Shown here: piece by piece, positions 36,531-37,006 of the stretch
Position numbering within the stretch: the stretch's first letter is position 1
Layout of the letters: each line of letters starts with the position of its first letter
Source of the DNA: Patescibacteria group bacterium
GTDB lineage: Bacteria > Patescibacteriota > Patescibacteriia > UBA1558 > GWA2-36-10
Assembly: GCA_018819405.1 (NCBI GenBank)
Contig: JAHJQF010000001.1
Span: 98,097-162,096, forward strand
DNA length: 64,000 nucleotides
Direction of reading: 5' to 3'
Program-made: the position numbers and the translations under genes
The notes under the pieces: generated by a model
Seen by the model: only the letters and a program-made list of their open reading frames with translations
The model's database searches: none
Told to the model about the DNA's origin: nothing

Positions 36531-37006
36531 AATATTGTTATCTTTCTTTTGTCACCTTCTAATAATTTTATATCTACTCTTATAGTTCTTTCTGGTAAAT
36601 TTACAATTTTGTCCGCCCATTCAATAGCTACTATTATATTATCATAGTTTAGATAATCGCCTAAACCTATATCATAAAGATCATCTTGACCTCGCAAACG
36701 ATAGCAATCAACATGAACAAACTTATCAGCTTTTTTATGCTTTACCCCGTTAAATTGCGGCTCAGCTGCACCTCGCATGTGCGAGGATTTAACGGAGTGA
36801 ATATCATAAACTTTCATCAAAACAAAAGTCGGACTGGTAATCTGCTCTTTTATCTTGAGCGCTTTGGCTAGTGCTTTTACAAATACCGTCTTACCGGCTC
36901 CCAGATTACCGCTCAAAGCTATCAGCTCCCCGCCTTCTAATCTATCGGCCAAATCATTAGCTATTTGAGCCGTTTCTTTTTGGTTATTTGATATGTATTC
37001 TTTCAC
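36515..37006 (-). CDS. tsaE: tRNA threonylcarbamoyladenosine biosynthesis protein TsaE, with an internal insertion
   Basis: GNLGAGKTVFVK P-loop and the ...CYRL motif. GTG start. About 20 extra aa (SVKSSHMRGAAEPQFNGVKHKKADK) coincide with an intragenic copy of the CCCCGTTAAAT repeat. Confidence 0.75.
   Translation of the reverse strand: MKEYISNNQKETAQIANDLADRLEGGELIALSGNLGAGKTVFVKALAKALKIKEQITSPTFVLMKVYDIHSVKSSHMRGAAEPQFNGVKHKKADKFVHVDCYRLRGQDDLYDIGLGDYLNYDNIIVAIEWADKIVNLPERTIRVDIKLLEGDKRKITILWPKN
36745..36798. repeat. CCCCGTTAAAT inverted-repeat pair, copy c (inside tsaE), with an inner CCTCGCATGTGCGAGG palindrome
   Basis: CCCCGTTAAAT (36745-36755) and ATTTAACGGAG (36788-36798). About 60% GC inside a low-GC gene. 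Confidence 0.6.

Follow-up and report, generated by a model that had tools for sequence, protein, structure and literature searches.

An In-Frame Palindromic Repeat in the tsaE Gene of a Patescibacteria Group Bacterium, Probably a Translated Copy of a Coding-Compatible Selfish DNA Element

We analysed a stretch of 64,000 nucleotides (nt) of a Patescibacteria group bacterium (assembly GCA_018819405.1, contig JAHJQF010000001.1, positions 98,097 to 162,096 of the forward strand), hereafter called the window, in which the tRNA-modification gene tsaE codes for 19 residues that are missing from its nearest orthologs. Probably, these 19 residues are the translated copy of a short, selfish, coding-compatible palindromic DNA element. 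As we propose it, the element would be about 40–80 nt long, with inverted termini of 13–15 nt (TTYACCCCGTTAAAT ... ATTTAACGGGGTRAA) around two hairpins of free sequence, and its single strand would fold into a tight three-way junction. It would multiply within genomes and be present in many uncultivated lineages, landing between the T and the A of a TT|AA-like sequence without duplicating the target. Since its termini place stops in two of the three frames, survival inside a gene would be limited to copies with the open frame PVKS...FNGV, a length of 3n, a GC-rich interior free of stops, and the favourable direction, that is, the one encoding a small, polar, flexible peptide. The tsaE copy would have landed in a β-hairpin turn that immediately precedes the HxDxYRL strand and lies, along that strand, at a distance from both the SPTF motif and the ATP site, where its peptide may be carried as a disordered surface loop while TsaE stays functional. 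Presence of the insert in some orthologs and its absence from others, its family membership, the covariation of its structure, the rules of frame, length, and direction, and its place in a loop of the modelled protein are described below as observed; that the insert is mobile, translated, and neutral is what we infer.

The Insertion in tsaE

The gene tsaE is an essential tRNA-modification gene, and in the window it lies on the minus strand in a trio of the same orientation, with valS at 33678..36530, tsaE at 36515..37006, and tsaD at 37089..38141. Judged by the P-loop GxxGxGKT, the SPT(F/Y) motif, the HxDxYR strand, the (E)W motif, and the TsaE fold, the window protein is a member of the TsaE/YjeE family: it matches Pfam TsaE (PF02367) with E 7e-34 and the NCBIfam T6A_YjeE equivalog (TIGR00150) with 95 bits, over a cutoff of 60, and in the ortholog alignment it retains the invariant columns G33–T40, S58–F61, H98–L104, and E129. 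Among its 120 best relatives a length of 140 residues is the rule, with few exceptions, against 163 residues here. In the protein alignment the 19 extra residues, HSVKSSHMRGAAEPQFNGV, are located between VYDI and KHKKADKFVHVDCYRL, and they are missing from the two nearest orthologs, P0002 and P0004 (86% and 80% identity). The boundaries of the insert were fixed from the DNA of five orthologs aligned gene by gene; the empty site reads GAT ATT|AAG CAC in P0004 and GAT ATC|AAA CAT in P0002, and therefore there is no target duplication at the tsaE insert. The parts of the gene and of the insert are the following:

36515..37006, minus strand: tsaE coding sequence, 163 residues, GTG start (list of open reading frames)
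36743..36799, minus strand: inserted DNA proper, 57 nt or 19 codons, HSVKSSHMRGAAEPQFNGV (protein and DNA ortholog alignments)
36741..36801, minus strand: full palindromic element, that is, the insert plus the flanking TT/AA that extend its stem (covariance-model match)
36741..36755: outer-stem arm TTTACCCCGTTAAAT (plus strand), whose gene strand codes for FNGV (repeat and motif search)
36787..36801: outer-stem arm ATTTAACGGAGTGAA (plus strand), whose gene strand codes for HSVKS (repeat and motif search)
36771..36786: inner hairpin CCTCGCA-TG-TGCGAGG, first in the gene sense (CCTCGCATGTGCGAGG) (sequence and folds)
36756..36770: second inner hairpin TGCGGC-TCA-GCTGCA, second in the gene sense, one mismatch (TGCGGCTCAGCTGCA) (sequence and folds)

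The outer arms are complementary at 13 of 15 positions. As single-stranded DNA the element folds with z = −4.8 to −5.7, and its three-way-junction fold has −16.6 kcal/mol (z −4.76). An earlier sequence-only reading of this DNA had claimed a GC-rich, in-frame insertion in tsaE that copies an inverted repeat of the window, and all of this holds: the 19 codons are absent from the nearest orthologs, the match to the dispersed CCCCGTTAAAT family is given below, and GC is 0.53 over 36740–36799 against 0.25–0.40 in the flanks. Its coordinates, 36741–36803, do enclose the element, but its string of 25 residues takes in six native ones, KHKKAD, which orthologs conserve; likewise, the inner palindrome it described is real and lies at 36771–36786, but the second hairpin at 36756–36770 was overlooked.

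In three more distant TsaE orthologs (P0003, P0005, and P0030), 18 residues are added at this position. That of P0005 is a complete copy of the element (54.6 bits, fold z −7.5), though its hairpins differ and its terminus is compensated, and the P0003 and P0030 copies are decayed, with fold z above 0 and little repeat similarity, yet they are still in frame. The same reading had named, as what would speak against it, an extra segment in close relatives free of any likeness to the repeat; this was not what was seen, as the more distant orthologs with a segment have a clear copy in one case and decayed copies in the other two. In a neighbour-joining tree of TsaE orthologs, which is short and weakly resolved, the insert-bearing proteins (P0001; P0003 with P0030; P0005) stand in three places, each beside a sister without the insert. 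The syntenic 18-kb contig of the closest relative contains no copy of the element at all, neither the tsaE insert nor the spacer copy described in the next section.

Copies of the Repeat in the Window

When up to one mismatch is allowed, the window contains seven occurrences of the motif CCCCGTTAAAT, where 1.25 are expected, a number reached by none of 100 shuffles. Pairs of CCCCGTTAAAT and ATTTAACGGGG in inverted orientation define four elements, at 4097–4170, 18194–18329, 36741–36801, and 37002–37079. Eight copies of 52 nt, all taken from other genomes, served to build a covariance model, and this found the tsaE site as its top match in the window, with 42.7 bits and E 1.3e-10 on the minus strand, the gene sense, against 31.9 bits on the plus strand. 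The other three elements are these:

4097..4170: AT-rich intergenic copy with perfect termini (covariance model, 37.7 bits; motif search)
18194..18329: AT-rich intergenic copy with perfect termini (motif search, pair scan, partial covariance-model match)
37002..37079: AT-rich copy in the tsaD–tsaE spacer (repeat search; covariance model, 22.8 bits, E 1.7e-4)

The spacer copy occupies almost all of the 82-nt tsaD–tsaE spacer, and its terminus ACGGGGTGAA supplies the GTG start of tsaE (37004..37006), where the relatives have AAAATGAAAGAATAT. A strong promoter-like site on the minus strand at 37116–37088 (TTGGCA-17-TATAAT, 11/12) lies just upstream. The copy at 4097–4170 is followed by a separate terminator-like GC hairpin at 4177–4204, and the one at 18194–18329 holds a nested partial arm at 18216–18229 and stops 1 nt before the ATG of the open reading frame (ORF) 18331..20208.

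Anatomy, Fold, and Covariation of the Element

The copies are of two classes. GC-rich copies are built as TTYACCCCGTTAAAT-[hairpin]-[hairpin]-ATTTAACGGGGTRAA, and the AT-rich class, to which the three intergenic copies of the window belong, has the same termini around longer and mostly unstructured interiors, and is found, among the matches listed and by the labels in their record titles, mainly in WOR-3, Stahlbacteria, and Bacteroidales. Among the distinct GC-rich interiors of the matches listed, 43 of 51 fold into two adjacent hairpins made of 54 distinct stem strands, with no unpaired base at the junction in 36 of these 43 and with loops of 3 nt in 67 of the 86 hairpins (GAA 23 times, AAA 11 times). 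These many 3-nt loops and zero-nt junctions point to recognition of folded single-stranded DNA.

Pairing is kept while the sequence changes. In 122 matches aligned by the model, 95.1% of cells pair, against 83.8% in column shuffles, none of 500 of which reaches the observed value, and both sides have changed in 271 cells against 91 expected; in slid controls 30–52% pair. The alignment behind these counts was fitted to the model and includes both strands of every element. Covariation is present at all eight modelled inner pairs, and three outer-stem pairs have compensatory variants (GTGAAAT/ATTTCAC, GTTAGAT/ATCTAAC, and GTCAAAT/ATTTGAC). Over 112 copies, the base two positions outside CCCC/GGGG is mismatched (T with G, C with A) and complementary in only 22%, and the next two positions, TT/AA, pair again; this C/A versus T/G asymmetry was considered as an orientation marker and rejected, as it does not follow the order of the inner hairpins.

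No known RNA family was recognised in these sequences, whether by gathering or by E-value thresholds. A scan of the window with Rfam 15 at the gathering threshold returned tRNAs only, the canonical copies in eight loci gave no match, and the best candidate for the element itself, Chlorobi-1, was dismissed at 14.7 bits against a threshold of 50.

Rules for Copies inside Genes

Copies inside genes obey rules that copies between genes do not. All 22 GC-rich copies lying well inside long ORFs, among the matches listed, have a length of 0 mod 3 and are free of stops, whereas for AT-rich copies between genes the three residue classes of length hold 23, 21, and 25; the tsaE insert, whose length is likewise a multiple of three and which has no stop, follows the rule that the sequence-only reading had put forward as a check. 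The reading frame is (H/Y)PVKS...(Q/K)FNGV in 18 of 19 gene-internal copies. Two frames are closed by stops, by the TAA in CGT-TAA and by the TAA or TGA at the right end, GGGG-TRA-A, and the third is open; because the termini are palindromic, there is a single open frame in both orientations.

Direction is restricted too. Inside genes the hairpin starting with CC comes first in the sense direction in about 20 of 21 copies, and between co-directional genes the orientation is split 3 to 5. Read in the observed direction, 1 of 27 copies of 3n length has stops and 13% of the residues are hydrophobic, against 12 of 27 and 27% in reverse; with stops in reverse and hydrophobicity doubled, the preferred direction is best explained by selection among copies once they are inserted and not by the insertion step itself.

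The host genes include those of TsaE, EF-G, DNA polymerase I (in two genomes), LeuRS, YchF, RecG (in its wedge domain), a glycosyltransferase, a Wzy/TPR protein, and a glutamine amidotransferase (GATase). When four insert-bearing proteins were compared with NCBIfam, only the families of the host proteins were returned, with no model for the insert peptide.

For TsaE, an AlphaFold (AF2) model built with 85 orthologs suggests where such a peptide would be tolerated. The mean predicted local confidence (pLDDT) is 87.9, and it falls below 50 at residues 73–90, between the strands 64–68 and 95–100. The best Foldseek match of the model is Thermotoga maritima TsaE (6n9a_E, TM about 0.73), the top matches being TsaE chains, and a phmmer alignment with the TsaE chains of the Protein Data Bank splits in two at residues 68/96; the insert maps between residues 72 and 77 of the T. 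maritima protein. The model predicts a disordered loop between two β strands of a confident TsaE fold, in agreement with the surface loop earlier proposed from the sequence. The contacts of TsaE within TsaBDE are helix α3 (90–100), the β5–β6 loop (115–120), the S61PTFT motif, Tyr82, and Trp109 (PMC6009658), and the hairpin turn with the insert is not among these segments; the turn would point away from the TsaBDE interface.

Distribution across Genomes

One genome per species was scanned with an exact pattern, CCCCGTTAAAT followed by 20–50 nt and then ATTTAACGG, which returned at least 120 stretches, and at least 126 elements in at least 76 assemblies were counted in this way. The taxon labels of these assemblies are those of the record titles. 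By these labels, the matches listed include, from the candidate phyla radiation (CPR), Parcu-, Moran-, Saccharibacteria, Gracili-, Falkow-, Doudna-, Portnoy-, and Taylorbacteria, and outside it WOR-3, Stahlbacteria, Omnitrophota, Cloacimonadota, Zixibacteria, Bacteroidales, and some Gamma- and Deltaproteobacteria, with the termini conserved across assemblies of many such phyla. In the same matches, the mean identity of interiors is 0.66 within an assembly against 0.48 between assemblies, and 21% of interior pairs within an assembly reach at least 80% identity, against 0.7% between assemblies, as would be expected if the element multiplies within genomes.

Viruses and plasmids gave no sign of it: a pattern scan of 2.9 million viral contigs of IMG/VR had no match, and PLSDB plasmids and INPHARED phages had matches at chance level only. 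A concatenated query of 74 residues of insert peptide had two weak matches in a set of 5.8 billion proteins.

Some loci are crowded. Two elements lie back to back inside one ORF of the TIGR00375 family (L095, 713–760 and 767–814), three identical elements stand in a row in a Bacteroidales assembly (L033, 2404–2642), and an Omnitrophota assembly (L066) is very dense, with five copies in 8 kb.

Recurrence at One EF-G Codon and the Question of Movement

EF-G offers a second site at which filled and empty genes can be compared. In a Doudnabacteria-like clade the protein has its normal length of 707 residues; in L040 (6214–6261) and P0123 (L129) it carries HPVKSGEAGS..FNG between KLAGDV and KHKINIIDTPGH, and in P0177 (L130) and P0201 (L131) it carries other inserts at the same codon. 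The empty DNA reads GAT GTC|AAA CAT AAA (P0125, L128) and the filled one GAT ATT[...]AAA CAT AAA, with no target duplication, as at tsaE. The P0177 insert is an intact three-way junction of 78 nt from another subfamily, with terminus CCCCGTTAGAAGT (−27.9 kcal/mol, z −7.7), and with two subfamilies at one EF-G codon there were therefore at least two independent insertions there. The orthologous copies of L040 and P0123 differ by a compensatory change from T:A to C:G in the outer stem.

The tsaE and EF-G sites are alike. Both read D-I/V | K-H-K and both are in a hairpin turn before the Walker-B/G3 strand of a P-loop nucleoside triphosphatase (NTPase), and the tsaE flank, GAT ATT|AAG CAT AAA, is nearly the same as the EF-G flank, GAT GTC|AAA CAT AAA. 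Such recurrence at the same codon needs either site selectivity or a very narrow filter of tolerance.

Across 112 and 41 copies there was no extended or palindromic target consensus beyond TT|AA, and in the 112 copies no direct-repeat signal of target duplication, whichever boundary offset was taken; the TT..AA flanks, which are conserved, form an inverted and not a direct repeat. Within loci that add up to about 0.8 Mb, taken as 8-kb windows, no pairs of termini 0.3–3.5 kb apart were found that would mark a longer element with the same ends, and no transposase-like ORF recurred near the copies, the recurrent families there being T2SSE, GltX, REC, GT2, and similar. With no target duplication and, in these loci, no parent element and no linked transposase, the mobility of the element is therefore inferred from its distribution.

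Weighing the Explanations

Several points weigh against a selfish element that is simply mobile and neutral. Random insertion would not be expected to hit one codon again and again in several lineages of TsaE and of EF-G, and the compensatory change in EF-G, together with the covariation of the outer stem, hints that pairing is kept after insertion, unlike in a purely decaying parasite. As just described, the argument for mobility is one of distribution, and the spread over phyla is taken from record titles as given. The tsaE insert must stem from a copy outside the window, because the other three copies are AT-rich and without the two hairpins. Lastly, no empty allele of this same species turned up: metagenome scans for the precise empty allele and for the junction of tsaE with the element gave no match each, a weak negative, as the collection evidently does not include even the short contig of P0005.

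Among the other explanations, the one that survives best, though we think it unlikely, is that there is no dedicated transposase and that the repeat is spread by host recombination and repair, through templated copying, gene conversion at short matching flanks, or replication slippage driven by the hairpins. It would account at once for the missing target duplication and transposase, for two recurrent sites with near-identical flanks, and for terminus variants that change in both arms together; nevertheless, beyond TT|AA no flank consensus unites the 41 GC-rich copies, the EF-G codon is occupied by more than one subfamily, and termini conserved across phyla are more easily explained by a conserved protein that recognises them.

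Less probable again, and rather improbable altogether, is that the element is kept because it benefits its host, either as a nucleic-acid signal (a binding site, a stabiliser of mRNA, or a translational pause) or as a useful peptide module. Termini and fold conserved in very distant lineages are what one would expect of such a function, as are copies placed directly at gene starts, one of them providing the tsaE start codon, the repeated use of one codon just before the Walker-B/G3 strand in two P-loop NTPases, and the compensatory change between orthologous EF-G copies. However, close relatives live without the element, some lineages have let their copies decay, no common function links the host genes, disorder is predicted for the peptide, and intergenic copies have no preferred orientation relative to their neighbour genes. 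A role as intrinsic terminator can be set aside for the tsaE copy, since no terminator-like site was found inside or beside it.

It is very improbable that the element is present in the gene and left untranslated, cut from the mRNA or skipped by the ribosome, with the fold as the signal. Ribosome skipping has precedents in gene 60 of phage T4 and in the "byp" elements of Magnusiomyces mitochondria, and a very stable, strongly covarying fold in sense orientation inside genes, with termini conserved across the labelled phyla, would suit such a signal. Yet neither removal nor bypass needs a length of 3n, freedom from stops, or a fixed frame, and the copies comply in 22 of 22 and 18 of 19 cases; the P0003 and P0030 copies have lost the fold and are still in frame in intact genes; no Rfam family matches; and 3-nt loops are a feature of hairpins in DNA more than in RNA, as in the DNA mini-hairpins of the d(GCGAAGC) type.

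The weakest alternative, an ancestral loop of this TsaE lineage whose resemblance to the repeat is coincidental, could appeal to the 18-residue segments of P0003, P0005, and P0030 at the same place, two of them with little repeat similarity and no fold, but it is already largely refuted and its probability is practically negligible, given that the segment is missing from the nearest orthologs, that its bearers stand in three places of the tree beside insert-less sisters, that a covariance model built from outside recognises it here and in P0005, and that the same peptide frame is found in unrelated proteins.

A translated copy of a selfish, coding-compatible palindrome is thus the reading we prefer for tsaE. 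It is also conceivable, although here we lean towards doubt, that the family represents a new class of mobile DNA defined by its shape, namely, a T- or Y-shaped three-way junction with conserved, paired termini, found in many uncultivated bacterial phyla, readable in one frame, free of target-site duplications, and inserted repeatedly at one codon of P-loop NTPase genes (D-I/V|K-H-K in TsaE and EF-G). If this were true, its insertion would have to be selective for the site, by a mechanism that probably works on single-stranded DNA or depends on host factors and that is outside the known transposon families.

Comparison with Known Systems

The closest parallel in behaviour is that of the Rickettsia palindromic elements RPE-1 to RPE-10, which are in-frame palindromic elements (Ogata et al. 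2000, summarised in PMC10969869). As far as that summary goes, in both, short palindromes are scattered through a genome that is small and dense in genes, and they stand in frame within unrelated housekeeping genes as well as between genes, with the ORF kept open and a peptide added where the fold allows it; here, 22 gene-internal copies are in-frame palindromes of unrelated genes whose ORF stays open. In contrast, the RPEs summarised there are about 100–150 bp long and, as far as reported, limited to Rickettsia and relatives, whereas the present element has 40–80 nt and occurs in many phyla by title label; there is no sequence similarity between them and no NCBIfam domain at the insert, and the present element has a three-way junction and a single open frame. 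Membership in RPE-1 to RPE-10 is thereby ruled out by size, by sequence, and by hosts, which are Patescibacteria and other uncultivated phyla.

In-frame MITEs (miniature transposable elements with inverted repeats) of bacteria include the QMITEs of Coxiella (PMC5896051), and intragenic ERIC, Correia, and Anabaena MITEs are also described (PMC10969869). The sequence-only reading had called the tsaE insert a MITE and such intragenic, in-frame insertions rarely documented. The present element is indeed small, with terminal inverted repeats (13–15 bp) and many copies, non-coding alone, and occasionally fused in frame to an ORF; but classical MITEs have target-site duplications and can usually be traced to an insertion sequence (IS) with the same ends, neither of which was found here, and the interior of this element is conserved in structure, not in sequence. 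The label fits in part, since neither a duplicated target site nor, in the loci searched, a parent transposon came to light. Rarity, for its part, was overstated, since the phenomenon is already known from in-frame palindromic elements documented in Rickettsia (RPEs) and Coxiella (MITEs); the repeat family itself is apparently undescribed. A full-text literature search for the motif returned PCR primers only, and literature searches for such elements in CPR found no description.

With the REP/REPIN-RAYT and IS200/IS605-derived elements the repeat shares a GC-rich hairpin unit, the lack of target duplication, abundance within a genome, and folded single-stranded DNA as the likely substrate. REP/REPIN is ruled out, as there is no GTAG head and many copies are intragenic, REPs being extragenic palindromes of 20–40 nt; in a limited sample of 8-kb windows, the surroundings of the copies had neither a gene for RAYT, an HUH tyrosine transposase, nor one for TnpA. 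An IS200/IS605-derived element is ruled out by long, perfect inverted termini and by the absence of strand preference between genes: elements of the IS200/IS605 type have subterminal hairpins, lack inverted repeats at their ends, and enter in one orientation 3' of a fixed tetra- or pentanucleotide, whereas the YAC at the left end of the present element belongs to the insert and not to the target.

Two resemblances to recombination sites were also rejected. Integron attC sites have their cores in the opposite order (RYYYAAC ... GTTRRRY, against 5'-GTTAAAT ... ATTTAAC-3' here, on both strands), extrahelical bases, and a position at cassette ends, and in the present element the stems are fully paired and copies lie inside housekeeping genes. 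GTTAAAT resembles a XerD arm, but the arms are 20–100 nt apart and face the wrong way.

Among organellar systems, coding palindromes are described in the mitochondria of Nematomorpha (PMC6649704). These and the byp elements are similar to the present element in that hairpin inserts are tolerated in essential protein genes, and they differ from it in their hosts, which are bacterial here. Another difference lies in translation. Since the ribosome skips the byp elements of Magnusiomyces, these are free to break the frame, and the fact that frame, length, and freedom from stops are all kept in the present family argues for translation.

In shape only, the T-shaped terminal repeat of adeno-associated virus (AAV), an origin of viral replication that measures about 125 nt and is cut by the HUH protein Rep, is similar, with an outer stem, two small palindromes in both orders, 3-nt loops of the AAA/TTT type, and a junction with nearly no unpaired base. 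There is no sequence relation between the two and no virus in the present case, given the lack of any IMG/VR match.

Other Features of the Window

The neighbouring valS gene has an insertion of another kind. ValS has 950 residues in the window against 844 in the closest relative, and the extra 106 or so, between TLGWP and FHPTS (about residues 476–585; window about 34776..35105, minus strand), are an ASCH domain (Pfam PF04266, E 3.9e-11), that is, a domain of RNA-binding type placed here within a tRNA synthetase; the palindromic repeat is not at its flanks. The tRNA genes that were the sole Rfam matches at the gathering threshold are at 48793–48864, 59705–59776, 59927–60009, and 60029–60102.

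Significance

The genomes of Patescibacteria (CPR) are tiny and tightly packed with genes, and they are considered poor in mobile elements. If our reading of tsaE is right, this repeat would solve the problem of space by living in essential genes as a readable and harmless loop, a way of life until now best known from Rickettsia. It would also give a concrete origin for the small, lineage-specific insertions by which the annotation, alignment, and structure prediction of CPR proteins are made harder, and its copies would mark naturally tolerated insertion points in TsaE, EF-G, DNA polymerase I, LeuRS, and YchF. The covarying junction, the absence of target duplication, and the reuse of the same codon make the mechanism of movement a testable question, and the near-identical termini in distant phyla point either to a widely shared recognition factor or to horizontal spread among uncultivated bacteria that live together.

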